From an uncultured bacterium (GTDB taxonomy: Bacteria > Babelota > Babeliae > Babelales > Babelaceae), in assembly GCA_963819815.1 (NCBI GenBank), contig CAWFXL010000001.1, positions 1,408,001 through 1,472,000 of the forward strand: 64,000 bases of DNA. The letters are read 5' to 3'. The position numbers and the translations under genes are program-made. Numbering within the stretch: the stretch's first letter is position 1; every line of letters begins with the position of its first letter. Positions 46,620 through 60,845 of this stretch are shown here, piece by piece. The notes below the pieces were generated by a model. It ran no database searches. It saw only the letters and a list, made by a program, of their open reading frames with translations, and had not been told where the DNA came from.

Positions 46620-47183
46620 ATGATGAATTATGTACTAAAAGCAGTATCTCTTCTGTTGATCTCTGTTCCTCTGCTCGCTGTTGAGCATGATTACCAGGAA
46701 CAGCTTGAAGCTGCAATTGTGCAAACAAATGCGCCTAAAGTGGCCCGTTTACTTAAGCGCCGTACGAGAACCTCGGTGAAGAACTTTAATCATATGCTCG
46801 GTTGGGCGAATGATATTATTGAAGAGCGACGTATGCTAGAATCAACTTCAGGTGAAGCAACGTGGGCAGTGGTTGCATCCATACTAGGTTTAGCTGCTGG
46901 TAGTCTTGGACTGTATTACTATTTTGATGGACGAGGTTTTCGGACTGATGTAAGGGCTTCTATTCTGGGAGCAGAGAAAGGCTTTTTTACCATGCTAGGG
47001 ATTGCGGGCCTTGCCGGCGCGTATGGTCTCTATAAGTACTGGTCGGGACCTCGATATCGTCTAGCAAAAGCATATGATATTCTTTTTTCTCTTGAAGATG
47101 CTGTTGATGCACTTGAAAAGAAGAAAAAGCTTCGCTCTCAATTTGAGAAACTTCGCGGAAAGATGCTTAAGGAGGCTCAATGA
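46620..47183 (+). CDS. Hairpin-array family member 2
   Basis: Signal; EQLEAAI...KVARLL; two TM helices. Confidence 0.78.
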   Translation: MMNYVLKAVSLLLISVPLLAVEHDYQEQLEAAIVQTNAPKVARLLKRRTRTSVKNFNHMLGWANDIIEERRMLESTSGEATWAVVASILGLAAGSLGLYYYFDGRGFRTDVRASILGAEKGFFTMLGIAGLAGAYGLYKYWSGPRYRLAKAYDILFSLEDAVDALEKKKKLRSQFEKLRGKMLKEAQ

Positions 47184-47737
47184 AACTTCTATGGATTGCA
47201 ATCAGTATCAGTTTTCTAGTACCATTGTATGGGAAAAGTACTCTTGAAGAGCGCATGATTAATGCTATAGCTCAGACCGATTTTCCTCTACTGCGAAAGC
47301 TTATGAAAAGATTTGATCGAGAGTATTTGAGCAAAGAAGATAGAGTGAAATCATTACAGCTGATCAGAGCTGCCTGTATGGATGTGGTAAAAGCTACTAA
47401 AGATTCTTCTCTTGTAACAAGTAAGCATGATCTTATGAAGTCACTTGTAGGAGGCGTAGCGGGTGTTTGGGGCTTGTCGCATCTTATCTCTAATGGAGAA
47501 TTGATGCAGGATCCTTCGAAAGCTAACGACCAATCATGGTTATTTGCTAAAGCCATAGGATCGGGTGTGACCGTGCTATCAGGTGGTTATTGGTTGATCC
47601 AGGGCTTAGTAAAAGCTTCACAGCAGCAGCGGCATGAAACTGCTTGCAAAATAGATGAATATCTTGAAAGTTGCATTAAAGAGGTTGAGTTACCAAGTAA
47701 AGAGTTATTTGTAACAACCTGGAACAGGTACGCTTGA
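47180..47737 (+). CDS. Hairpin-array family member 3
   Basis: Signal; ERMINAI; DLMKS; two hydrophobic helices; QGLVKASQ...ACKIDEYL. Confidence 0.78.
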   Translation: MKLLWIAISISFLVPLYGKSTLEERMINAIAQTDFPLLRKLMKRFDREYLSKEDRVKSLQLIRAACMDVVKATKDSSLVTSKHDLMKSLVGGVAGVWGLSHLISNGELMQDPSKANDQSWLFAKAIGSGVTVLSGGYWLIQGLVKASQQQRHETACKIDEYLESCIKEVELPSKELFVTTWNRYA

Positions 47738-47765
47738 CCGGATGCACGTGTATTAGGGTAATTGT

Positions 47766-48329
47766 ATGAATAAGGTGTATGAAATAGTTTTAATGAGTCT
47801 CATATCTATGAGTACTTGTATGCAGGCGGATCAGGAGTATAAGCTTGATCAAATAACAGCTGCTATTAAAGATTCCGACCTTGCTCGTGTGAAAACACAA
47901 TGGAGAAGAATTGATAGCATCTTTGAATCTTCCGAAGAAAAGAAGGAGATCCTAAAAACTCTTGTAGATACTGCAGCTCAAGTAGCCGATGAATCAAAAG
48001 TGAGACCAGTGGCCGGTGGAAAAAATTATAAGAAAATAGCAGGTGGTGTGCTTACAATCGCTGGCGCCTCGGGCGTAGCTGCCTATTATATGCCTTTACA
48101 TAGGTTGTTTTATGGCGCGACGCACAATGAACAGATTAAAGGATGGGCCATTTTCGTTGGGTTGGCTGCGGTTTCAATCGCTGGAGGTAGGCTTAGCAGA
48201 AATGGAATGGGATGGGAAGCCCAAGATCCGATAGCCAATCGTGGCCGTTCAAAGGCTACAGTTATTTTGGCATATCTTGAAGATCAACTGCATGATATAT
48301 TGAATGAAAACATTAAGTTGCAAAAGTAG
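47766..48329 (+). CDS. Hairpin-array family member 4
   Basis: Signal; DQITAAI...RVK; GRSKATVILAYLED. Confidence 0.78.
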   Translation: MNKVYEIVLMSLISMSTCMQADQEYKLDQITAAIKDSDLARVKTQWRRIDSIFESSEEKKEILKTLVDTAAQVADESKVRPVAGGKNYKKIAGGVLTIAGASGVAAYYMPLHRLFYGATHNEQIKGWAIFVGLAAVSIAGGRLSRNGMGWEAQDPIANRGRSKATVILAYLEDQLHDILNENIKLQK

Positions 48330-48337
48330 CGGATAGC

Positions 48338-48388
48338 ATGAAAAATCTTATATATGTAGCTACCCAATGTTATGCAGAGATAGATAGA
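48338..48388 (+). pseudogene. 5' remnant of an array gene
   Basis: ATGAAAAATCTTATATATGTAGCTACCCAATGTTATGCAGAGATA matches the starts of members 6-9 with an internal deletion. Confidence 0.7.
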
Positions 48389-48398
48389 GGTTAATTTT

Positions 48399-48941
48399 AT
48401 GAATAAGGCATATGGAATAATTTTAACGAGCCTTACTGTTATTAGTATCAGCATGCAGGCAAAGCAAGAATATGAGCTTGATCCGATAACAGCTGCTATT
48501 AAATGGTCTAATATAGCTCTGGTAAAAACAGAATGGAGAAGACTTGATAGTTCTATTGAGTCTTCAGAAGATAAGAAAGCTGTACTAAATACTCTTATAG
48601 ATATAGCAGCTCAGATAGCTGATAAGGCGGAAATCCCCTCAGTGGCTCCTAGCTGCAAAAGAAACTATTGGGCAGCGGTAGGGGGTATCCTCTTGAGCTC
48701 TTTTGGTAGTGGTATTTTTTTTGTTGGATTAGGGTATCATGGGCGAAATGAACATGCTGAATTGGCCTATTACCTTGTTGGGGGGGTCCCTTGGCAGAAA
48801 GGACTTAGGCTCATAGAAATTGGAGCAGGATGTGATGAAAATATCCAAGCGCCGACGGCCAATTGTGGCCGTTCGAAGGCTACAGTTATTTTGGCATACC
48901 TTGAAGATCTATTGCGGGATGTATCGAATAAAAAATCGTGA
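48399..48941 (+). CDS. Hairpin-array family member 5 (close paralogue of member 4)
   Basis: EYELDPITAAIK...WRRLDS; GRSKATVILAYLED. Confidence 0.78.
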   Translation: MNKAYGIILTSLTVISISMQAKQEYELDPITAAIKWSNIALVKTEWRRLDSSIESSEDKKAVLNTLIDIAAQIADKAEIPSVAPSCKRNYWAAVGGILLSSFGSGIFFVGLGYHGRNEHAELAYYLVGGVPWQKGLRLIEIGAGCDENIQAPTANCGRSKATVILAYLEDLLRDVSNKKS

Positions 48942-48963
48942 ATAGAGAAAGTGAGCACTCAAT

Positions 48964-49452
48964 ATGAAAAAACTCATGTATGTAGCTACGTTAGCTCTAG
49001 CTACCCAATGTTATGCAGAGATACATACGGAAAAGATAGAAGAAGCCATTGAGCAATCTTCACTTCCCCGAGTTAAATCTCTTCTTGGTAAAGTAGAACG
49101 TGGGGAAATGACTGCTAAAGCACGTAAAAAATTGTATATGAATTTTTATGATTTAGCTGTTGAAACTACCGAGAACCGTACGCAAAATCTCTCAATGGTG
49201 GGAAACTGGCGTGACATGCTAAGGACTGGACTAGGGGTAACAGGCCTACTTCTTAGTGGGCTTACAATGAGTTTCGGGACAGATCAGGGTGATGATATGC
49301 CTCGGTGGTTAGGCTTTGGTGTGCTTGGCGTATATTTCTTGTATAGAGGCATTGCGTGTAGTGCTCAAAAGGCCGAAATAGCCTCAGCAAAAAGCGTTGA
49401 AAAATATATTAAAGGGAAGCTTACTAAACTAGATGTGAGCTCTGATCTCTGA
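48964..49452 (+). CDS. Hairpin-array family member 6
   Basis: MKKLMYVATLALATQCYAE...EKIEEAIEQSSLPRVKSLL...GNWRD...GIACSAQKAE. Confidence 0.82.
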   Translation: MKKLMYVATLALATQCYAEIHTEKIEEAIEQSSLPRVKSLLGKVERGEMTAKARKKLYMNFYDLAVETTENRTQNLSMVGNWRDMLRTGLGVTGLLLSGLTMSFGTDQGDDMPRWLGFGVLGVYFLYRGIACSAQKAEIASAKSVEKYIKGKLTKLDVSSDL

Positions 49453-49477
49453 TAATCAACTAGAAAGGAATGCAATT

Positions 49478-50014
49478 ATGAAAAAACTCATGTATGTAGC
49501 TACGTTAGCTCTAGCTACCCAATGTTATGCAGAGATAAATACGGAAAAGATAGAAGAAGCCATTGAGCAATCTTCACTTCCCCGAGTTAAATCTCTTCTT
49601 GGCAGAGCAGATCTTGAGGAAATGACTGCCAAAGCACGTAAAAAATTGTATAGGGACTTCTATGATTTAGCGGTTGAAACTACCGAGAACCGTACGCAAA
49701 ATGTTTCAATCGTGGGAAACTGGCGCGACATACTTAAGACTGGTTCAGGGGTAGCAGCTCTTGTTCTAAGTGGGTTTGCAGGCTTAGGGAGTCTTGATAC
49801 AGATAATCAGGGTAGAATTACTGGTTTTAACAAGCTATGGCTCGGATCGTTAGGTCTTGGTGTGGCTAGCGTATATCTTTTGTATAAAGGTATCACGTGT
49901 AGTGCTCAGAAGGCTGAGGTAGCGGTAGCAAAAAGCATTGAAAAGTATATTAAGTCGAAGCTTAATAACTCCCATGCAAATGATGAGCTTGATGATAAAG
50001 AAGAAGGAAAATAA
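49478..50014 (+). CDS. Hairpin-array family member 7
   Basis: Near-identical N- and C-terminal blocks to members 6, 8 and 9. Confidence 0.82.
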   Translation: MKKLMYVATLALATQCYAEINTEKIEEAIEQSSLPRVKSLLGRADLEEMTAKARKKLYRDFYDLAVETTENRTQNVSIVGNWRDILKTGSGVAALVLSGFAGLGSLDTDNQGRITGFNKLWLGSLGLGVASVYLLYKGITCSAQKAEVAVAKSIEKYIKSKLNNSHANDELDDKEEGK

Positions 50015-50016
50015 GT

Positions 50017-50556
50017 ATGAAGAATCTTATGTATGTAGCGGCGTTAGCTCTAGTTACCCAATGTTATGCAGAGATAAATACAGAAAAGATAGAAGAAGCC
50101 ATTGAGCAATCTTCACTTTCCCGAGTTAAAGCTCTTCTTGGCAGGGCAGATCTTGAGGAAATGACCGTGAAGGCACGTAAGAAATTGTATAGAGACTTCT
50201 ATGATTTAGCTGTTGAAACTACGGAGAACCGTACGCAAAATGTTTCAATGGTGGGAAACTGGCGTGACATGCTCAAGACTGGCTCAGGGGTAGCAGCTCT
50301 TCTTCTAAGTGGGTTTGCAGGCTTATTCAGTCTTGATACAGATGATCAGGGTAGATTTACTGGTTTTGATAGGCGATGGCTATTCGGATCGGTAGGTCTT
50401 GGTGTAACTAGCGTATATCTTTTGTATAAAGGTATCACGTGTAGTGCTCAGAAGGCTGAGGTAGCGGTAGCAAAAAGCATTGAAAAGTATATTAAGTCGA
50501 AGCTGAATAATTCCCCTGCGAATGACGAGCTTGATGATAACGAAGAAGGAAAATAG
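50017..50556 (+). CDS. Hairpin-array family member 8
   Basis: Most recent duplicate of member 7. Confidence 0.82.
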   Translation: MKNLMYVAALALVTQCYAEINTEKIEEAIEQSSLSRVKALLGRADLEEMTVKARKKLYRDFYDLAVETTENRTQNVSMVGNWRDMLKTGSGVAALLLSGFAGLFSLDTDDQGRFTGFDRRWLFGSVGLGVTSVYLLYKGITCSAQKAEVAVAKSIEKYIKSKLNNSPANDELDDNEEGK

Positions 50557-50558
50557 TT

Positions 50559-51074
50559 ATGAAAAATCTTATGTATGTAGCGGCGTTAGCTCTAGCTACC
50601 CAATGTTATGCAGAAACAAATTCGGAAAAGATAGAAGAAGCCATTGAGCAATCTTCACTTCCCCGAGTTAAATCTCTTATGCGGGAAGCAGACAGCAATG
50701 AAATGACTGTCCAAGCACGTAAAAAGATGTATAAGAATTTTTACGATATGGCTGTTGAAACTACCGAGAACCTTACGCAGAATCTCTCAATAACGGGAAA
50801 TTGGCGTGATATGACAAAGGTCGGCTTAGGTGCAGCATCACTTCTTCTTGGTGGACTTCTAGCCTTAAGGAGTAGACATAGGGATAATGCCCATAGGGTG
50901 CATTATAATAGGCCTTCTCTCCTAGGATCGGCCGGTTTTTTGGGGTTTGGCGCATATCTTCTGTATCAAGGTGTCAAGTGTAGCTCTCAGAAGGCTTCTA
51001 TAGCGGTAGCAAAAAGTATTGAAAAATTTATGAAAAAGAAACTCACTAATCTGGATGTTGCTTCCGATCTTTGA
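50559..51074 (+). CDS. Hairpin-array family member 9
   Basis: Same scaffold; loop RSRHRDNAHRVHYNRP. Confidence 0.82.
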   Translation: MKNLMYVAALALATQCYAETNSEKIEEAIEQSSLPRVKSLMREADSNEMTVQARKKMYKNFYDMAVETTENLTQNLSITGNWRDMTKVGLGAASLLLGGLLALRSRHRDNAHRVHYNRPSLLGSAGFLGFGAYLLYQGVKCSSQKASIAVAKSIEKFMKKKLTNLDVASDL

Positions 51075-51104
51075 CAGCAAAGAAAGGAAAATAGAGGAAG
51101 AAAT

Positions 51105-51650
51105 ATGAAAAGACTTAGGGTTATAGGTGCTTTGGCTCTTACTACGCAAGGTTGCTTAGCAGTAGATATCGAAAGAATAGAAGATGCTATTAAGCAATCT
51201 TCACGTACCCAGGTTGAATCGCTTTTGAGTGAAATTGACCATGAAGAGATGACTCCAGAAGTACGTAAAGAGATGTATACGAATTTTTATGACTTAGCGA
51301 TAAAGACTACTGAGAGTCGCACTCAAAATCTCTCAATAGGGGGAAGTCGGTATGATCTGCTTAAGACTAGTTCGGGTATCGCCTTAGGTCTTCTTGCTGG
51401 GTTGAAGTTTTACGAGAGTTTTGGTAATCGCAATACCCGACTGCTGTACTCTGGTTTTCTAAGGGCCGGGTTCATCTTCAGGGTCGGAGATTGGGCACGT
51501 GTATTATCGTGCGGCTTTGGGATTCCAGCTCTCTATCTCTTATATAAGGGCATTACCTGCAGCACTCAGAAGGCAGAAATAGCCTCAGCAAAAACGATTG
51601 AAGAGCTTATTAAGGCGAAACTTAACGGGCTAGAGCCTGATCTTAAGTAG
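51105..51650 (+). CDS. Hairpin-array family member 10
   Basis: ERIEDAIKQSS...FYDLA...YKGITCSTQKAEIASAK. Confidence 0.8.
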   Translation: MKRLRVIGALALTTQGCLAVDIERIEDAIKQSSRTQVESLLSEIDHEEMTPEVRKEMYTNFYDLAIKTTESRTQNLSIGGSRYDLLKTSSGIALGLLAGLKFYESFGNRNTRLLYSGFLRAGFIFRVGDWARVLSCGFGIPALYLLYKGITCSTQKAEIASAKTIEELIKAKLNGLEPDLK

Positions 51651-51661
51651 GGAAGATTGAT

Positions 51662-52207
51662 ATGAAGAAACTATATGGTCTTATGTGGGCAGTTACTGCT
51701 CTTGGAAGTTACAGTTGGGCTGCGGTGCCGATTGAGCAACTAGAAGAAGCTATCACCCAATCTCGAGTAAGTCGAATCAAAGGCTTGCTGCATAAGGTAG
51801 GCAAAGAACAGATGTCTGAGCAAGCGCGGACGAAATTGCTGGGTAATCTCTATGATACGGCTGCGGAGCTTACTGATAAGCGCATCGACAGTAAATCTCT
51901 TATAGGCAGTTGGCGCGATATGACTAAGACTGTTTTTGGAACCATATGTTTTAGTGGTGGTATTATAGGGCTTGCTGTAGGTATTCAACATAGCACTAGT
52001 AATGATCAACGAATTGCAAACGCAAGCTATTATGGGAGAATTGGGAGCTGTGTACTTGCATCTTTAGGCGCCTATCTTTTTTATAAGGGCGTAACCTGCA
52101 GTTCGCAACAATATATGATAGATCAAGCAACTGAAGTAGAAGAATATATTGACAGTGTGCTTAATAATGCAGAGCTGCTGTTACTAGAAACCGCGGACAG
52201 TGAATAA
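51662..52207 (+). CDS. Hairpin-array family member 11
   Basis: EQLEEAITQS...GSWRDMTK...YKGVTCSSQ. Confidence 0.8.
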   Translation: MKKLYGLMWAVTALGSYSWAAVPIEQLEEAITQSRVSRIKGLLHKVGKEQMSEQARTKLLGNLYDTAAELTDKRIDSKSLIGSWRDMTKTVFGTICFSGGIIGLAVGIQHSTSNDQRIANASYYGRIGSCVLASLGAYLFYKGVTCSSQQYMIDQATEVEEYIDSVLNNAELLLLETADSE

Positions 52208-52223
52208 AGAAAGGCGATCTCAT

Positions 52224-52817
52224 ATGAACAAAATCTCTATCATTGTTTTGGTCAATATTGCGTTAGGTGCAACAACCTTCTGTGCATCTAAAACTGAATT
52301 AGAGAAGTTTGAAAAAGCTATCGTATCGGGCAGAACCGACAAGGTACGCTCATTGCTTAAGAACTATGAAAGCAAAAACCCTCCTGCAAAGGAACGGCAA
52401 GCTTTCGTAGAGAATCTTGCTCGAATAGCAAGCGATGTGGTGACCGATCATAAAGAAAGAATCTCGTTGCAAGGTAATATCAAAGATATTGTTACGTATG
52501 CAGATCGTGAAAAAGCCCAAGATTTAAGTCTCATCGGTCTTGGAGGAGCCCTTATTGCCCTCGGGTGCTGGTATGGAAAATCGGCATATACTCAGTATAT
52601 GAATAGTGCTCCTGGTGATCACGACGCGCGAAGCATCTATTATAAAGACCTTGTATTTAACGTTGGTATTGCATCTCTTGGGGGTATCTTTGGAGGCCTT
52701 CTTGCATATAGAGGGTATGCATGTACCATGCAAGAAAATGCGCTTAAAGCTGCTGAGAAAATCGAAACATTTCTTTTAGAATGTGCTGGTATCAACAAAG
52801 TAGATGACGAAGATTGA
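52224..52817 (+). CDS. Hairpin-array family member 12
   Basis: Signal; EKFEKAI...KVRSLL; YRGYACTMQ...AEKIETFL. Confidence 0.78.
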   Translation: MNKISIIVLVNIALGATTFCASKTELEKFEKAIVSGRTDKVRSLLKNYESKNPPAKERQAFVENLARIASDVVTDHKERISLQGNIKDIVTYADREKAQDLSLIGLGGALIALGCWYGKSAYTQYMNSAPGDHDARSIYYKDLVFNVGIASLGGIFGGLLAYRGYACTMQENALKAAEKIETFLLECAGINKVDDED

Positions 52818-53057: not shown

Positions 53058-54506
53058 ATGAATAAACGTAGTTTAGTTATTCTAGCTTTGCTTCTTGGAT
53101 CGAGTACTCTGCTTATGGCAAGCTCTGAAGAAGAAGCGCTGAGAAGGTTTAGACAATATGCTCAAGAAGGTGATCCTGTCTTGAGAGGGTCGAACCTTTT
53201 CAAGAGGCGCACTATTGATCCTGTGGCTGCCGCTGCAGAGAGGGAGGAGCTTAGGCGGATCCTTGATGAGATGAAGAATGATCCAACAGCTAATCCAAAG
53301 CATATACTTGCTGATATTGCGCATGAGCGTAAAATAGAAGATGAGGAAGCTGCTCAAAAAGATATTGATGATCTTAAATGGCAGAATACGCTTCTCGTTT
53401 CTGATCCTTCGGGTTTGGTGGGAATATATAAGGCAGATTTTATTAAGTCAGGATTACTCATAGCTTCTATTGTTGCCGATGTTAAGCTCTATAACGAGCT
53501 TACGCGTCGTCGAAAAGAACACATTATAGACGCAATACTTTCAGACATAGATATGTTTATTGCTCTGTTGAAGCGTGTGAACGAATCTGAAGCACGCTAT
53601 GACGAGCGTATGGCAAGCATGTCAGCATTTGCGCAAGTATTTACCGATCGAGAACGAGGTCATGATATCTTATTAAATCCACTGCGTAGGTATCTTGTTG
53701 AAAATCATACATTAGTAAAGGGATATATGCCTTTTACTAGTGAAACTATTGTCCCTTTAGTGGCGCGATGGGGTCTTGAAAAGGTATTTGATTGGCTAGA
53801 GAACAAATTACTGGTGAGTCCAAGAACACTAAGCTATAACAGACTACCCGGGCTTCAGGAACATTTTGATGCGTGGAGATTCGCCTATCAGCCAAATCAG
53901 GCAGGTCATCTAGTTCCTTTGAAGACTAATGTGTTAGAAATTACTGAAGGCTTAGGAATTGGTGTACCTTTTTCTTTCACAACCGCCCTCAAGACTTTGA
54001 TGATTATCGTAAGTCCGCTAAAGGCTCTTCAAAAGTTACTCTATCCTACTACATCTACTTGGTTGGGTGGGCTCTCGCTTGCTAACAAAGTTTCGGGTTT
54101 TGGGCTCCCAGACTTTTTATTTTCTGATACGGCCAAATTAGGTCTCGAGGTGGTTAGCATTGGATTTTCAGCAAAATATTATGATATGATTAATACCTCC
54201 AAGTGGGGTACCTATGTCCTTCAAAATAGAGATGAATTATTGGGTATTCTCTATAGATATCGAAGAGCGTTAGATAATGCATCGAGTGGTGAGGATGCTA
54301 TTGCTCAAGCTAAACAAAGGATACGCGACTTTGTGGAACAAGGGCATGAATCTAGGGGCTGGATTTCTGGAGCATCACTTGATTGGTGGAAAGTTCGAGC
54401 TGAAGGACGGGGATATGTTCACAAATGGCTGAGATACGGCGCTGCTACGCTCTTAGCGTTAAAGTTTGGGCACTGGTGGTTAACTGCAGAGCCAAAGCCG
54501 CAATAA
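53058..54506 (+). CDS. Hypothetical secreted/membrane protein (482 aa)
   Basis: Signal peptide, N-terminal coiled coil, several amphipathic/hydrophobic segments, hydrophobic C-terminus. Confidence 0.75.
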   Translation: MNKRSLVILALLLGSSTLLMASSEEEALRRFRQYAQEGDPVLRGSNLFKRRTIDPVAAAAEREELRRILDEMKNDPTANPKHILADIAHERKIEDEEAAQKDIDDLKWQNTLLVSDPSGLVGIYKADFIKSGLLIASIVADVKLYNELTRRRKEHIIDAILSDIDMFIALLKRVNESEARYDERMASMSAFAQVFTDRERGHDILLNPLRRYLVENHTLVKGYMPFTSETIVPLVARWGLEKVFDWLENKLLVSPRTLSYNRLPGLQEHFDAWRFAYQPNQAGHLVPLKTNVLEITEGLGIGVPFSFTTALKTLMIIVSPLKALQKLLYPTTSTWLGGLSLANKVSGFGLPDFLFSDTAKLGLEVVSIGFSAKYYDMINTSKWGTYVLQNRDELLGILYRYRRALDNASSGEDAIAQAKQRIRDFVEQGHESRGWISGASLDWWKVRAEGRGYVHKWLRYGAATLLALKFGHWWLTAEPKPQ

Positions 54507-54545
54507 GATAACTAGAGAAAAATGAATAGTGGAGGATACCATACT

Positions 54546-56174
54546 ATGAAAAGAAGCTTGAAAGTTTTAATAATCGGTGCTGCATTGTGCACGCTTACCC
54601 CCAACATGGCTCTAGCTGCTGACGCACTCGGCGGACTCATTGGAAGGCTTAAGGACTTGGCTACTAATCAAAAGGTAACCGATCTTGTCAAAAATGCATT
54701 TGATAAAGTTGGTGAAGGAGTGAAAAGTGTTCAAGACAGGGCTGCAGCTATAGAGACAGAGCGCCGGGAGGCGCATAGAAAGCTTAGAGATAATCTTTCT
54801 AAAAAGGCGAATGATCATACCCTGCAAAAATGGGAAAGAGAGGCTGCGCAAAAAGCATTATTGGATGAGGATGAACGGCATAGAGCGAATATGCAAAGGA
54901 ACGACGAAATTAGCCATGATGTTAAGAAAATGGCGGCGAACGCTGTTGGCAAGGCGGTGGATTATGGAATACAGGAAAGTTTTGCTATGGCAGCTCATAG
55001 CCGTAATCTCGAAGCGATAGCTCTTGAAGCGGCCCAAAAGCGTAAGGCGGCTGTGGAAAGTACCAAGGAGTACATCAAGGCTTTTACCGATCCTAAGAAC
55101 CTTACGAAGTTTGTTCTTGCTGCCGGCGGAGTGTTTGGTCTCTACTTCGGTCTTAAGCATGGTATTACCTATATTGCAGAGCAGTATAAAAAGCCAGAGC
55201 TTGCCGATTCTAATAAAACATCCTTAAAGTTTGGACCTCTCAACTTTTTTAAATCGTTGATTTATGGCACGATACAGGAAGATTCAGCTCTTTCAGATGT
55301 GATTTTAAAGCCTGAACTAGCTGAAGAGGTTAATGAGATTACTCAATCTCTTAAAAATATTGTGATGAATGGTGGCTATTTTGATAACTTGATGCTGTGG
55401 GGTCAGCCAGGTACTGGTAAAACCATGCTTGCCATGAGAATGGCCCGATCATGTGGTCTTGAATATATCTATTTTACGGCATCTAACTTAGAGACATTTA
55501 GCACCGAAGAGGCCTCTGCTCAGCTGGTACAGCTCTTTAGATATGCGCAAAATTCGCCGCGTAAGCTGATGATTATTATAGACGAGGCTGAAGCGCTTCT
55601 TGGAAGTCGTAGTAGGCCGGATATGACCGATAAGAAACGTACTCTTCTCAACCTTGTACTTGGCTATACGGGTACAGAAAGCCGTGACTATATGGTTACT
55701 GTGCTTACCAATAGGCCAGAAGATATCGATGAGGCGTTCCTCAGTAGGTGTGGTATGCGTATTCAAATTGGTGCACCGGATAAAACTGAACTGCGCGCGA
55801 TTCTTAAATCATACGTTGAAAAGATGTTGTTCAATGCATCGAACTTGAAGCCTGAGAAACCTTCATTCCTCAGTCCGAAATTCTGGTTTGGTAAGACTGA
55901 GAAGATAACTCCACCGACGATAGAAGAAGGAGCTCTCTCTGAAGAGGCTCTTGATACTCTAGCCGAAAAACTCAATGGTTTTGTTGGACGTGATATTTCT
56001 AAGCTTGTCTTTAGAATTCAAGGTTCAGCATTTACCACCGAAGATCATAAGATCACCGCTGCCTTGATTAATAAGGCTGTTGATAGAATGCTTAAAGAGC
56101 GTGCGGCAGAAAAAGGTGGATTTATTCGGGAAGGAACGAATAAGGGTGCTCCCAAGGCTGTAGCTGCTGCTTAG
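54546..56174 (+). CDS. ATAD3-like AAA+ ATPase with signal peptide
   Basis: GGAGGA RBS; coiled coil, TM helix, KPEL...TS, LSDVILKPEL, GQPGTGKT, IIIDEAEALL, TNRPEDID. Confidence 0.85.
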   Translation: MKRSLKVLIIGAALCTLTPNMALAADALGGLIGRLKDLATNQKVTDLVKNAFDKVGEGVKSVQDRAAAIETERREAHRKLRDNLSKKANDHTLQKWEREAAQKALLDEDERHRANMQRNDEISHDVKKMAANAVGKAVDYGIQESFAMAAHSRNLEAIALEAAQKRKAAVESTKEYIKAFTDPKNLTKFVLAAGGVFGLYFGLKHGITYIAEQYKKPELADSNKTSLKFGPLNFFKSLIYGTIQEDSALSDVILKPELAEEVNEITQSLKNIVMNGGYFDNLMLWGQPGTGKTMLAMRMARSCGLEYIYFTASNLETFSTEEASAQLVQLFRYAQNSPRKLMIIIDEAEALLGSRSRPDMTDKKRTLLNLVLGYTGTESRDYMVTVLTNRPEDIDEAFLSRCGMRIQIGAPDKTELRAILKSYVEKMLFNASNLKPEKPSFLSPKFWFGKTEKITPPTIEEGALSEEALDTLAEKLNGFVGRDISKLVFRIQGSAFTTEDHKITAALINKAVDRMLKERAAEKGGFIREGTNKGAPKAVAAA

Positions 56175-56399: not shown

Positions 56400-56666
56400 A
56401 TGAACAAATGTTTAAAAATTACCTTAACGGTTGATCGTATGGAAGGCTTTTTGCATACTATTGTGCAATCTAAGGCCAGAAAGTGTGATCTAGAAGGTGT
56501 TGTTCAGCCAGTGAATGATTCGCAGATACGGATTATCGTCTGCGGAGAAAAAGAAAACGTTGATACCTTTGTCGATCTCTTGCAAAGAGAGGCAATTAAA
56601 GATGTTGAGATAGAACCTTTTGTGAAAGATAAAGATTACCGTGGGGTATTTCGGGTCATAGAATAA
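56400..56666 (+). CDS. Acylphosphatase-like protein (divergent)
   Basis: A...LEGVV...V.I..CGEKENVDTF and FRVI end; canonical GRVQGVGFR is degenerate. Confidence 0.65.
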   Translation: MNKCLKITLTVDRMEGFLHTIVQSKARKCDLEGVVQPVNDSQIRIIVCGEKENVDTFVDLLQREAIKDVEIEPFVKDKDYRGVFRVIE

Positions 56667-56745: not shown

Positions 56746-59337
56746 ATGATAATACTTGCTTTCATTGTTCTATCATTATGTTCGCTTATCGAAGGTGCTC
56801 CACAATACGTTGTTTCTAAAGTCAAAATCAAAAGCTCCCTGTTAGGGAAAGATCGTTTTATACCCCACTATCTTCATGAAGCGGGTGACTATTTTGATGA
56901 AGCTCAACACAAAAGATCTCTTCTTCTTCTACAGCAGGAGCTTCGTGATGATGGGTATCTGAGAGCTTCAGTGAAAGATGCTCTTACTAAGGATGAGCTG
57001 AGTAAGACTATTTCGGTATTTTTACAGCTTGATCCTGGTAAGAGATTTACAGTATCTGCTGTTAAGGTTACTAGTATAGGCAGTCTTTTAACCACTACTG
57101 ACGAAACTCTTAATCGAGATATGCATGCCTTGCTTGAACCTCTAGTGGGTTCTTTTGCAGAACGGAAGACTATCAATGAGTATGGCAAACGGCTTCATAC
57201 TTTACTGATCCGCAAGGGGTATGTGAAGCCAGTCATAGAACTTACAGAAATAGATCATGAAGAAAGCGCGCAGGTTGAGCTAAGCTATACTATAACGTCT
57301 TCAGAACGGCATGAGTTTCGTTTTGTAGGGAACCAATTTTTTAGCACGACAGAATTACTCGATGATCTTCTTTCTTTGCTTGAGGAAGGGATCTCCTTGC
57401 CTCCAGCATTGATCGCACAGGATATTCAAGATCTCTATAAGAAAAAGGGCTTTATACAAGCAAAAGTGCATTGGCAGGAGGATGCAGAATTAGTCACGTT
57501 TTTTATCGCAGAAGGAGAAAGGCATACGGTTGGCAATGTTATGATCATGGAAGAATTTACCGATGGAAAATCGCTTGCTGTGCTTACGAGCCTCGAGGCT
57601 GCTCTTATAAAACTGCCTGCGTATGATGAAGAGCAAATTGATCTTCTTTTTAATAAAGCCTCAGTGGCTCTTGCAGATCTTGGATACTGGCACCTTGTCC
57701 TTGATAAAGAAGTAACCCGTGCAAAGGATGCAGCCAAGATGGACCTTCTGATTTCTATTACTCAGGCGGATACTGAAGGATCACCGAAGTGCATGATGGT
57801 GACGCAGGTAAGTATTCCCGGGTATGAGGAGCTCCTTTTCCAAGGACCCTTTGCTGAGTGGCAGATGCTCAAAGAACCCTGTTGTGTAAAACCTTCAGAT
57901 ATAGATGTGCAAAGGCGTTGGCTTATGAGCTTTATCAAAGGTAAAGGGTACCAGTCGGCGCATATTTTCTATGAGGTTGATAAAGATCTTAGGATGATCT
58001 GGAAAATAGAGGATCTTGAGGGACCTGTGCGATTTGGGCCAGTCGAGATATTGGGCCTTCATAAAATGAAGCCCTTTATTGTACGCAGAGAGTTGTGTTT
58101 TAAAGAAGGGGACATTTTTGATAGACAGAAGATTGATGCTTCAGTAAAGCGCCTACAGGGCTTACATATGTTTGAATCGATCACCTTTCACCCAGAGGAG
58201 ACGGTTGAGAAGACGCAGAAGGGTGAGACTCAGCTCATAAAACCTATGCTTATTAAGTGTTGTGAAGATGACCCTTATGAAGTGCTCACCCGTTTTGGTC
58301 TTCAGTTTGTCAGTAAGAGCTTTACGAACGTGTCTTGGACAACCTGGAAGCTTGGGGGCTCTTTTATTTGGAAGAATCCTACAGGCTATGCTGATCGGCT
58401 TATGCTTGATGCTGATTGGACAAGGTATACCTTAAATCTTTCTGCAGGCTATGAGCTCCCCTGGTTAGGCCCATGGCGGATTCGAACTCTAGCGAAGGTA
58501 TACAGTGATCGGTTTGATCAACCCCTTGTTGCAAACAGGAATCATCGGCTGTATAAAGAAGCACATGATGGGTTTAGCTTGACCTTTAACTATCAACATC
58601 CTTGGTGGGTAACCTGTGTACGTACAGGTTTTGAGCTTAATAAACTCTCGGGGATTTCTCATGAGTTAGCACGAGTTATTCAATTTGAACCTAGGTTAGT
58701 AGACCAGAGGATTCCTTACTTCTATTGTGAACCATCGGTAACCTTCGAGCATTTTGATAATAAAGCTGATCCTTCTCGAGGCTTCTTTTCAACCTTTTCA
58801 CTCAAAGCCATGGTTCCGCCAACGGTTACTGATGGCTGGTTTGTAAAAGCAGCACTTGAGCAGTCACTGTTTTATCCACTGTATAATTCGGTTATTGGTG
58901 CAGTACGGTGGCGTGTTGGGCATATCTTTAATGCTAAGTTCAGTACAATTTTGCCCACTGAGCGATTCTATTTGGGAGGTGCAAACTCATTACGCGGTTA
59001 TGAGACGAACATGGTCCCCCCTTTAAATGATGTTACCTGCGATGGACGATGTATCTGGGTACCTGTTGGTGGTAAAACAATGGCAAACGTTAATGCAGAG
59101 GTACGATTTCCCCTCTACAAACGGTTAAGTGGTGTGGTCTTTACTGATATGGGTATTCTTACACAAGATAAATTTGCCGATATTGCTGCTAATAAGTGGC
59201 TCGGTGCCTCAGGGATAGGTCTAAGATTTGCTTCACCGATTGGCCCTGTTCGTTTTGATATCGGTTGGAAGTGGCATAAGCGAGATCCTCGAGATAAATC
59301 GTATGCCTTCTTCTTTACCCTTGGCCATGCTTTCTAA
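56746..59337 (+). CDS. Omp85 family outer-membrane protein (BamA/TamA-like) with POTRA domains
   Basis: POTRA-like repeats; ERFYLGGANSLRGY, SPIGPVRFDIG, C-terminal GHAF. Confidence 0.92.
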   Translation: MIILAFIVLSLCSLIEGAPQYVVSKVKIKSSLLGKDRFIPHYLHEAGDYFDEAQHKRSLLLLQQELRDDGYLRASVKDALTKDELSKTISVFLQLDPGKRFTVSAVKVTSIGSLLTTTDETLNRDMHALLEPLVGSFAERKTINEYGKRLHTLLIRKGYVKPVIELTEIDHEESAQVELSYTITSSERHEFRFVGNQFFSTTELLDDLLSLLEEGISLPPALIAQDIQDLYKKKGFIQAKVHWQEDAELVTFFIAEGERHTVGNVMIMEEFTDGKSLAVLTSLEAALIKLPAYDEEQIDLLFNKASVALADLGYWHLVLDKEVTRAKDAAKMDLLISITQADTEGSPKCMMVTQVSIPGYEELLFQGPFAEWQMLKEPCCVKPSDIDVQRRWLMSFIKGKGYQSAHIFYEVDKDLRMIWKIEDLEGPVRFGPVEILGLHKMKPFIVRRELCFKEGDIFDRQKIDASVKRLQGLHMFESITFHPEETVEKTQKGETQLIKPMLIKCCEDDPYEVLTRFGLQFVSKSFTNVSWTTWKLGGSFIWKNPTGYADRLMLDADWTRYTLNLSAGYELPWLGPWRIRTLAKVYSDRFDQPLVANRNHRLYKEAHDGFSLTFNYQHPWWVTCVRTGFELNKLSGISHELARVIQFEPRLVDQRIPYFYCEPSVTFEHFDNKADPSRGFFSTFSLKAMVPPTVTDGWFVKAALEQSLFYPLYNSVIGAVRWRVGHIFNAKFSTILPTERFYLGGANSLRGYETNMVPPLNDVTCDGRCIWVPVGGKTMANVNAEVRFPLYKRLSGVVFTDMGILTQDKFADIAANKWLGASGIGLRFASPIGPVRFDIGWKWHKRDPRDKSYAFFFTLGHAF

Positions 59338-59692: not shown

Positions 59693-60676
59693 CTAGATGA
59701 CTCCAAGGCCCGGGTACCAAGCAGTGATGTTACCCGTGGGCAGGGAAGGGATTATCTCTTGATAGCCTTGGCCGTCTCTTTGATTTTCATAAAATGCAAG
59801 AAGATCATCAAGAGTGATCTCAATGGAAAGAGATGCTAAATCCTTTTTGCTCAATGGCGCATGGCACGTGGGGCACGTCAGACTGATTTGTTCAGGTCGT
59901 TTAGTGACAAAGCATCGCGACTTTGCAAGTCCAGTGAGGCATCTTTTGTGAAATCTATGTTTGCATTTCAGGACAACTTCCTCGGCTTCATCTAATAATG
60001 CCTGCTTTACATAAGGTGCCATTGATTGGTTATATAATGTGATCATCCCAGGTTCAGCAAGGAATGCTCTAAGGAGTATCGGAGTGATTTTATATTGCTG
60101 GGCGTTAGGAGTTGAAAACAGTTGCAGGTATTTTAACAGGGTAAGACGCTGAGCTTCTTCTAATTTAATTTGATTATCAAGTGATGCTCTTTCTTCATCG
60201 CTTAGTGATAAATGAGAATAAGCTGACTCAGTACGTCTCAGGTTAAGCTTGCTTAACCGCTCCTCACTGAGCCTTTGTGCTAGAGAAAATGCTTTGGTAA
60301 AAGCTTTAAAGCTTAATTTCTGCATCGTTTCTTCTGCAGCGTTTTCTTTTTGTAAGGCTGTTTGGTAAGACTCATTCACACCTGCCAGCTCTGCACGGAT
60401 TGCTTCTATCTGGTTTGCAGAAGTAGCCGAACTAAGTATCCTGGTGAGTTGTTGTCTGCGAGCACGGTACGTCTCTACTTCCTCCACATCTAAGACTTGA
60501 ATCCAAGAGGGGATGTCCCCCAGGCACATAGCGCCGCAGGTTCCAATATGCTCCTCTGCTTGAGCATGAACATTTTGTTCTTCAGTTCGAACAAGATCAT
60601 TTGATTGGGAGGCTGCCATAACTTCTAGCGATGGGAAGCTGAACAAAAAAACGAGCGCAATACGTGAGTATATCAT
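59693..60676 (-). CDS. Secreted protein with split RING-H2-like finger, copy 1
   Basis: Signal MIYSRIALVFLFSFPSLEVMA; CGAMC ... long helical region ... CKHRFHKRC ... CPTC. Confidence 0.8.
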   Translation of the reverse strand: MIYSRIALVFLFSFPSLEVMAASQSNDLVRTEEQNVHAQAEEHIGTCGAMCLGDIPSWIQVLDVEEVETYRARRQQLTRILSSATSANQIEAIRAELAGVNESYQTALQKENAAEETMQKLSFKAFTKAFSLAQRLSEERLSKLNLRRTESAYSHLSLSDEERASLDNQIKLEEAQRLTLLKYLQLFSTPNAQQYKITPILLRAFLAEPGMITLYNQSMAPYVKQALLDEAEEVVLKCKHRFHKRCLTGLAKSRCFVTKRPEQISLTCPTCHAPLSKKDLASLSIEITLDDLLAFYENQRDGQGYQEIIPSLPTGNITAWYPGLGVI

Positions 60677-60845
60677 GCGATTCCTTAATGTAGTGAGGAG
60701 GTGTGTATAAATTACTATTAGCAATAGCATACCACGGACAATGAAGTTAGCAATGAGAATATAATCGCGCAACGCCAGTTGAGCTTTTGGCATTCTTGCG
60801 AAATTTATGTATAGTTCATAGAAGATATAATCAAAGGATTACTTC

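Follow-up and report, generated by a model that had tools for sequence, protein, structure and literature searches.

Dependentiae (TM6) are obligate intracellular parasites of protists. ATAD3 is a membrane ATPase of mitochondria that has been described so far only in eukaryotes; animals and Plasmodium cannot do without it, and mutations in it are found in human disease. The locus reported here raises the question of whether a member of this bacterial phylum encodes a relative of ATAD3 and, if so, where in the cell such a protein would act. It lies in a 64,000-nucleotide stretch of DNA (the window) of an uncultured bacterium of the family Babelaceae (GCA_963819815.1, contig CAWFXL010000001.1, positions 1,408,001 to 1,472,000 of the forward strand). 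The gene in question, an intact open reading frame of 542 codons plus stop at window positions 54546..56174 (+), had been read in a first-pass annotation as a bacterial homologue of mitochondrial ATAD3 with an export signal. Sequence comparison places its product, an AAA+ ATPase, in a bacterial branch of the ATAD3 superfamily with a specific affinity to ATAD3, and the family to which it belongs represents bacterial relatives of that protein.

A word-indexed search that covered 5.8 billion proteins returned 57 matches to the ATPase, 35 of which were full-length relatives (P0002-P0036, E values of 1e-241 to 3e-49) with no recorded ATAD3_N domain. Two of these were named, as Candidatus Babela massiliensis and Candidatus Dependentiae bacterium, and 3 of the 57 matched proteins carried the automatic JGI label 'ATAD3A/B'. 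Next came P0037 at 1e-35, for which the precomputed Pfam list held no PF12037, and then eukaryotic proteins with both PF12037 and PF00004, from Ochromonadaceae (3e-33), from Cryptosporidium (2e-29) and one more (4e-24); FtsH and Vps4-type proteins appeared only at 1e-7 to 1e-4. In an exhaustive HMMER search against 1.84 billion representatives, 219 proteins reached E<=1e-30. The Pfam scan of these matches covered proteins outside a 95-protein batch that held P0002-P0041 and higher-ranked matches; ATAD3_N was present at E<=1e-7 in 15 of the 60 lower-ranked proteins scanned (<=800 amino acids, from the top 150 HMMER matches). It was found that the relatives next after the own bacterial family were eukaryotic ATAD3_N-bearing ATAD3 proteins, at E values of 1e-43 to 1e-24.

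The relationship was also observed at the level of profiles. When an alignment of 35 bacterial sequences (A1) was compared by hhalign with one of 12 eukaryotic ATAD3_N-bearing sequences (A2), a match with a probability of 100 and an E value of 4e-77 was obtained over 361 columns, which paired query residues 155-527, starting before the membrane helix, with residues 244-634 of a 640-amino-acid ATAD3; a likeness of this order goes well past what chance would give. A BLASTP alignment of the ATPase with the Cryptosporidium protein covered residues 154-527. In the reverse check, the eukaryotic ATAD3 profile (A2) ranked the window gene first in its own genome (243.8 bits, E value of 1.2e-72), with profile positions 120-586 of 594 aligned to residues of about 68-529 (window 54747-56132); two paralogues reached 223 and 213 bits, and FtsH reached 71 bits.

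Collinear homology outside the AAA core took in the end of the stalk, the membrane helix, the KPxL(..)ETS segment and the lid insert. The post-membrane motif YKKPELADSNKTS at residues 214-226 (55185..55223, (+)), with an invariant P217, corresponds to YxxPxLAxETS in the family consensus and to GxPSLVRETS in ATAD3, and LSDVILKPELAEEV was found at residues 249-262 of the 542-residue protein. The consensus of the 12 eukaryotic proteins contained the blocks GxPSLVRETS, VVLxPxLxxRV, LLYGPPGTGKTM..SGMDYA, LFxWAxxSxKGLLLFIDEAEAFL and LNALLYxTGTQSxxFMLVLATNRPxDLD, and the ATAD3 blocks given in the first-pass annotation agreed with it. The lid motif GFVGRDISKL (55977-56006, (+)) conforms to the pattern GF(S/V)GR(E/D)I common to the bacterial family and ATAD3 (GFSGREIAKL in ATAD3), where the FtsH of the same genome has GFTGADL; to judge from these alignments, the pattern is a derived character common to both groups. 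The same coiled-coil and membrane-helix order as in ATAD3 had also been proposed; the collinearity seen with ATAD3 starts ahead of the membrane helix and continues to the C-terminal end.

Phylogenetic trees were built on residues 208 to 525, and 24 long multi-AAA proteins among the HMMER matches, which ranked high because their domain scores were summed, were kept out of them. ATAD3-like rows together with ATAD3 stood apart from the outgroup at 99 in a FastTree of 150 rows and at 97 in a quick IQ-TREE of 115 rows, before which the long rows own_1150643 and P0041 were dropped. A careful IQ-TREE analysis (C20, 55 rows x 317 columns) was made with 55 of the 115 rows, including 8 outgroup rows, after the long-branch rows L015, L028, own_52227 and P0153 were dropped; ATAD3-like proteins and ATAD3 were separated from FtsH, Vps4-like and other AAA proteins at 100/100. 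Neither the best matches nor the position in the tree thus fell among generic FtsH- or SpoVK-like ATPases. In the careful tree the eukaryotic rows formed one clade (100/99), and the window protein was not inside it. The clade of the window protein (clade A), which includes Babela, was supported at 100/96, and a second Dependentiae clade (clade B) was weakly sister to eukaryotes (80/78), the backbone being otherwise unresolved. On this topology, the eukaryotic clade stands among the Dependentiae clades as one deep lineage of several.

Two further groups were noticed among the related proteins. P0037, P0174, P0155, P0182 and P0186, from short contigs, formed an ATAD3-like clade (100/100) within the superclade, without signal peptide and with a long charged N-terminus; the four that were scanned (P0174, P0155, P0182 and P0186) had no ATAD3_N at 1e-7, and the group may be a second eukaryotic or viral lineage. 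A scan of viral contigs with the family alignment gave 55 loci, all of them generic AAA (best E value of 1e-11, core only), and no giant-virus copy with these patterns. P0038, P0133 and P0170, which are eukaryotic and ATAD3_N-bearing (one from Ochromonadaceae), start with a signal-peptide-like segment and have a long additional region at the N-terminus, which sets them apart from the animal or Cryptosporidium type.

For the predicted protein, the start at 54546 was favoured because a Shine-Dalgarno-like GGAGGA (54531..54536, (+)) sits 9 nucleotides 5' of this ATG. The alternative upstream ATG at 54522, included in the called open frame 54522..56174 (+), was rejected, as it has no Shine-Dalgarno site and the signal peptide would be buried. 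Hydropathy predicted a signal peptide at residues 1-24 (54546..54617, (+)), which begins with MKRSLK, has a hydrophobic core within residues 4-25 and ends in a cleavage-like ALA/AD. By a crude test, a similar N-terminal hydrophobic stretch was present in 122 of 150 family rows that start with M and lack PF12037. A lipoprotein was rejected, since by eye there is no lipobox before the Cys of the signal peptide. The residues that follow, 26-181 (54621..55088, (+)), are rich in A, K, E and D and are predicted to form an exported helical stalk. The only other hydrophobic stretch, residues 185-207 (55098..55166, (+)), showed Kyte-Doolittle values of 1.3-1.4 over 19 amino acids and was predicted to be a single glycine-rich membrane helix, which hhalign pairs with the inner-membrane helix of ATAD3.

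An AlphaFold2 model of the ATPase from the 35-row alignment reached a mean predicted local distance difference test (pLDDT) score of 80.8 and a predicted template modelling score of 0.63. It exhibited long helices at residues 42-88 and 95-150 (pLDDT >90 at about residues 70-120), and further helices at 161-181 and 183-213. The AAA alpha/beta core was modelled at 281-429, with the helical lid behind it extending to 523, and pLDDT was mostly >90 in these two parts. All strings quoted in the first-pass annotation were located, as were the predicted signal peptide, the long helices and the putative membrane helix. The coiled coil is putative and comes from the long model helices and the composition of the stalk.

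Pfam recognized AAA (PF00004) at residues 282-409 with an E value of 3.2e-21 and nothing else of substance. The single classical AAA domain (core at 55389..55772, (+), from PF00004 and the invariant columns) is intact in Walker A (GQPGTGKT, residues 286-293, 55401-55424, (+)), Walker B (MIIIDEAE, residues 342-349, 55569-55592, (+)), sensor-1 (N389, in VLTNRP at residues 386-391, 55701-55718, (+)) and the arginine finger (R401, 55737-55760, (+)). Invariant across 35 family members were G286, P288, G289, G291, K292, T293, D346, E347, N389 and R401. The lid and C-terminal helical domain with its insert, as delimited by alignments and the model, occupies 55782..56114 (+). As in ATAD3, the canonical aromatic-hydrophobic-Gly pore loop is missing, and remodelling or scaffolding therefore seems likelier than classical polypeptide threading.

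The ATPase gene was found to have a partner. Directly upstream lies a gene for a 482-amino-acid protein (p482, 53058..54506, (+)), which ends 39 nucleotides before the ATPase start and has a predicted signal peptide and several hydrophobic segments. Relatives of p482 occur in 17 of 261 Dependentiae genomes, and by comparison of the coordinates by hand every copy in the 17/17 genomes stands directly upstream of an ATAD3-like gene on the same strand. The pair was duplicated as a unit in three genomes (G007, G029 and G194), and tblastn placed p482 upstream in all 12 clade-A loci with flanks. The two genes are a fixed gene pair, newly found here. No Pfam family was assigned to p482, for which 16 family members gave scattered single matches at E values of 0.005 or worse, and a comparison with the Protein Atlas, in which eukaryotic proteins were outside the search, gave no usable match or cluster. 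Complex prediction with ATPase residues 26-250 (35-row alignment) and p482 residues 22-482 (16-row alignment) gave a score of 0.00, which speaks neither for nor against binding. Downstream of the ATPase gene, Pfam identified an acylphosphatase (56400-56666, (+)) and an Omp85/POTRA outer-membrane protein (56746-59337, (+)); both were downstream in 6 of the 12 loci (L003-L008), all of the window's own family.

ATAD3-like genes are widespread in the phylum. At E<=1e-20, a threshold that excludes FtsH because the FtsH of the own genome scores 4e-11, the family was found in 104 of the 261 Dependentiae genomes, in 75 of the 189 genomes of good quality and in 62 of 145 genera, and some Dependentiae families were nearly saturated (34/35 and 11/12). 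A contig scan with patterns specific to the window protein, silent on other phyla, gave one close relative only, a partial copy with 89% identity in Candidatus Dependentiae. The own genome holds two intact paralogues, at C1:1238653 and at C1:1152667, the latter of which keeps RTPALVLETS. Two others (G000:C1:1150469-1151437 (-) and C1:908179-908550 (+)) have degenerate Walker motifs, GPSGCGKR and GPAGSPKR in place of Walker A and IYIDNAQ and IYIDDAE in place of Walker B, and from these motifs they are likely inactive subunits; one of them adjoins the intact paralogue at C1:1152667. A broken paralogue (G000:C1:860978-861792 (-)), 38% identical over residues 303-522, has an in-frame TGA and is split into two frames. 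Two large paralogous proteins of 720 and 773 amino acids (G000:C1:52179-52745 and C1:58955-59518 (-)) were also noticed; each starts with a signal-peptide-like segment and carries at its C-terminus an AAA domain of a different and highly divergent type, and they form a long branch among the outgroups.

These results assign the window protein, as a representative from Dependentiae, to the ATAD3 branch within the classical AAA+ ATPases, and we consider it probable, with moderate confidence, that it is an inner-membrane protein which forms an envelope assembly with p482. The Sec signal peptide would send the N-terminal helical stalk into the periplasm, and the helix at residues 185-207 would stop transfer and anchor the protein in the inner membrane. 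The ATPase would stay in the ATP-containing cytoplasm and form a ring as AAA+ proteins do. A type-I inner-membrane protein is predicted because a signal peptide and then a stop-transfer helix precede an ATP-dependent domain. Together with p482, it may build an ATP-driven, envelope-spanning assembly that organizes or tethers the two membranes. By analogy, this assembly may have a part in the handling of membranes or lipids in its bacterium, which does not produce lipids itself; TM6 genomes are described as lacking lipid synthesis in part of one report (PMC4776705), which makes a function of this kind an attractive possibility.

Several points weigh against this interpretation. The topology and location are predictions from sequence and model, and the envelope or lipid role is proposed by analogy. 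The membrane helix is moderately hydrophobic (1.3-1.4) and glycine-rich, so that it might not stop transfer, and the charges flanking it do not clearly follow the positive-inside rule. Up to 5 ATAD3-like matches per genome, degenerate-Walker copies and a broken copy form a pattern that is also that of effector families. The outgroups of the trees were FtsH, Vps4/katanin-like and a few other proteins returned by the searches, with proteasomal Rpt, Bcs1 and Msp1 unsampled. Pfam ATAD3_N (PF12037, cut-off of 25 bits) gave no match on the ATPase at E<=0.01 and none in the own genome at E<=1e-3, and the ATAD3_N-matching Dependentiae proteins that could be placed in the tree belong to clade B and not to the window's clade A. 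Because ATAD3_N does not score on the window protein, it is called ATAD3-like here and not an ATAD3 orthologue. In the phylum as a whole, ATAD3_N matched 13 of the 261 genomes at E<=1e-3 and 6 of the 261 above the Pfam cut-off, with best scores of 42 and 40.7 bits that reach profile positions 39-265; 12 of the 14 listed places were the N-terminal end of an ATAD3-like match, and none of 14 control genomes was matched.

On the evolutionary side, it is conceivable, if tentative, that eukaryotic ATAD3 is itself of bacterial origin, a Dependentiae-like envelope AAA ATPase having passed to an early eukaryote and been redeployed across the mitochondrial inner membrane, with the Dependentiae family and p482 as the surviving ancestral machine. 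The mitochondrial inner membrane compartment has the same topology as the bacterial envelope, and the outgroup-rooted placement of eukaryotes among deep Dependentiae lineages fits such an origin. The approximately unbiased (AU) test does not decide the matter. When the 37 bacterial or unnamed rows were all constrained to a single clade, the loss was 1.64 log-likelihood units and this tree was not rejected (p-AU of 0.445), and the data are therefore compatible with either transfer direction, or with fast divergence after one ancient transfer. The earlier proposal that the gene is informative on the origin of ATAD3 is in keeping with these results; its host-to-bacterium direction is not singled out by them.

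The first-pass annotation had further proposed use of the protein as a mitochondrion-manipulating effector. In this scenario the protein mimics host ATAD3, leaves the bacterium, for example by type II secretion or in outer-membrane vesicles, and inserts into host mitochondrial membranes, which it remodels; docking to mitochondria and feeding on them would thereby be made easier for the parasite. The N-terminal export signal, the weak hydrophobicity of the membrane helix and the expanded, variable family with its degenerate copies are all in line with it. Chromulinavorax, a cultured member of Dependentiae, was reported to replicate wrapped in an expanded host mitochondrion and to shed vesicles, with signal sequences on 44% of its proteins (excerpts of PMC6561590), and a type II secretion system is mentioned for TM6 genomes in the consulted part of PMC4776705. 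However, the standard mark of a type-I inner-membrane protein is a signal peptide with a hydrophobic helix after it, and an AAA ring needs ATP, which the periplasm does not contain. The strict pairing with exported bacterial p482 and the adjacent Omp85 gene fit an envelope machine, and signal peptides as common in the phylum as the passages of PMC6561590 indicate are weak evidence for host delivery. The effector is thus regarded as unlikely, and an inner-membrane protein as more likely, in view of the signal peptide, the stop-transfer helix and the p482 pairing.

That the protein is a generic bacterial AAA ATPase (FtsH-, SpoVK- or Vps4-like) which resembles ATAD3 by convergence is very improbable. 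Pfam and NCBIfam named only generic AAA models, and the best solved-structure matches were p97, FtsH, Rix7 and proteasomal ATPases, with no ATAD3 chain among the matches listed, so that ATAD3 was no competitor in that comparison. Against this, ∼140-170 bits separated ATAD3-like genes from FtsH under the eukaryotic ATAD3 profile, the homology went beyond the AAA core to take in the stretch before the membrane, the membrane helix, the KPxL segment and the insert of the lid, and the clade was supported at 100/100. In addition, the protein has no peptidase M41 domain and scored 50.3 bits with the FtsH model TIGR01241, for which the cut-off is 600. Generic AAA identity is largely refuted by these data. 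An assembly or binning artefact that misplaced a eukaryotic ATAD3 in a bacterial genome, for which nothing speaks beyond the eukaryotic affinity of the protein, can be dismissed almost entirely, as the gene is found well inside a contig of 1,604,641 bases with bacterial genes (Omp85/POTRA, acylphosphatase) around it, has a Shine-Dalgarno site, no introns and a local guanine-plus-cytosine (GC) content of 0.43 like its surroundings, and is refuted as an artefact by synteny, with orthologues that have the same neighbours in many independent Dependentiae genomes.

Within this contig the gene sits at 1.46 Mb, and a recent island was rejected, since the GC content is even (0.41-0.45). Window positions 46620-52817 (+), immediately 5' of the p482/ATPase pair, are taken up by 11 small paralogous open reading frames (162-205 amino acids) arranged head to tail. 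The four that were checked had one or two hydrophobic segments, most with a signal-peptide-like start. Relatives of the array occurred in 4 of the 41 genomes of the family, clear only in the nearest genome (G027, with the same array) and weak in G034 and in G032, where they lie next to that genome's own pair. On the other side, at 59693-60793 (-), a 366-amino-acid protein showed a sub-threshold C-terminal RING finger (zf-C3HC4, E value of 6.6e-4, 19.9 bits with a cut-off of 21); it could be a eukaryote-like E3 ligase.

In the literature, with subscription-only papers outside the search, no paper was found that links ATAD3 to Dependentiae, Chlamydiae, bacterial homologues or endosymbionts. According to a 2026 paper on Plasmodium ATAD3, the ATAD3 domain has no likeness in any other AAA+ subclass, and the words 'bacteria' and 'prokaryot' are absent from its text as accessed, supplements aside (PMC13249166). 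A widespread bacterial family with the layout of ATAD3 provides a way into the origin and the mechanism of that protein. It makes the origin of ATAD3 testable as an ancient transfer, in either direction, between a protist host and a Dependentiae parasite. It also offers a simpler system for structural and biochemical work, consisting of one gene with a soluble ATPase domain and one conserved partner. Moreover, it points to an undescribed envelope machine in bacteria that live at the expense of a host and do not synthesize lipids. Were the protein after all an effector, the striking remodelling of mitochondria around Chromulinavorax might be among the processes it accounts for.

Compared with known systems, the window protein, by its predicted topology, shares with FtsH a bacterial, inner-membrane-anchored classical AAA domain with a cytoplasmic ring, and by Foldseek and sequence FtsH is among its closest solved folds. 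The window protein has none of the further features of FtsH, namely a second membrane helix to make two, the small domain in the periplasm, the FVG pore loop and the M41 peptidase at the C-terminus (no match to the peptidase model PF01434 was found on it). Dependentiae clade B (G000:C1:1152667-1153467; G133:C16; G111:C64) is alike in phylum, architecture, signal peptides and superclade; however, it is closer to eukaryotic ATAD3, keeps xPxLVxETS, and some of its members pass the ATAD3_N cut-off with up to 42 bits, whereas the window gene belongs to the more derived clade A with Babela massiliensis P0022. In comparison with eukaryotic ATAD3, the window protein has a predicted cleavable Sec signal peptide where ATAD3 has internal mitochondrial targeting, its stalk is shorter and gives no Pfam ATAD3_N match, and its family is multi-copy and, for the window protein, paired with p482. 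It also lacks the proline-rich N-terminus and outer-membrane segment of mammalian ATAD3 (as described in part of PMC13249166). Nevertheless, the window protein and eukaryotic ATAD3 (human ATAD3A, PfATAD3) have in common a helical N-terminal part, one membrane helix, the KPxL..ETS segment, a single AAA domain and the lid insert, with about 26-30% identity over some 360-400 residues. Human ATAD3A spans the inner membrane with its helix, so that the coiled coils face the intermembrane space and the ATPase faces the matrix (PMC9704698, in part), and the topology predicted for the bacterial protein, in which the inner membrane separates an outer stalk from an inner ATPase, would be the same as this experimental one.

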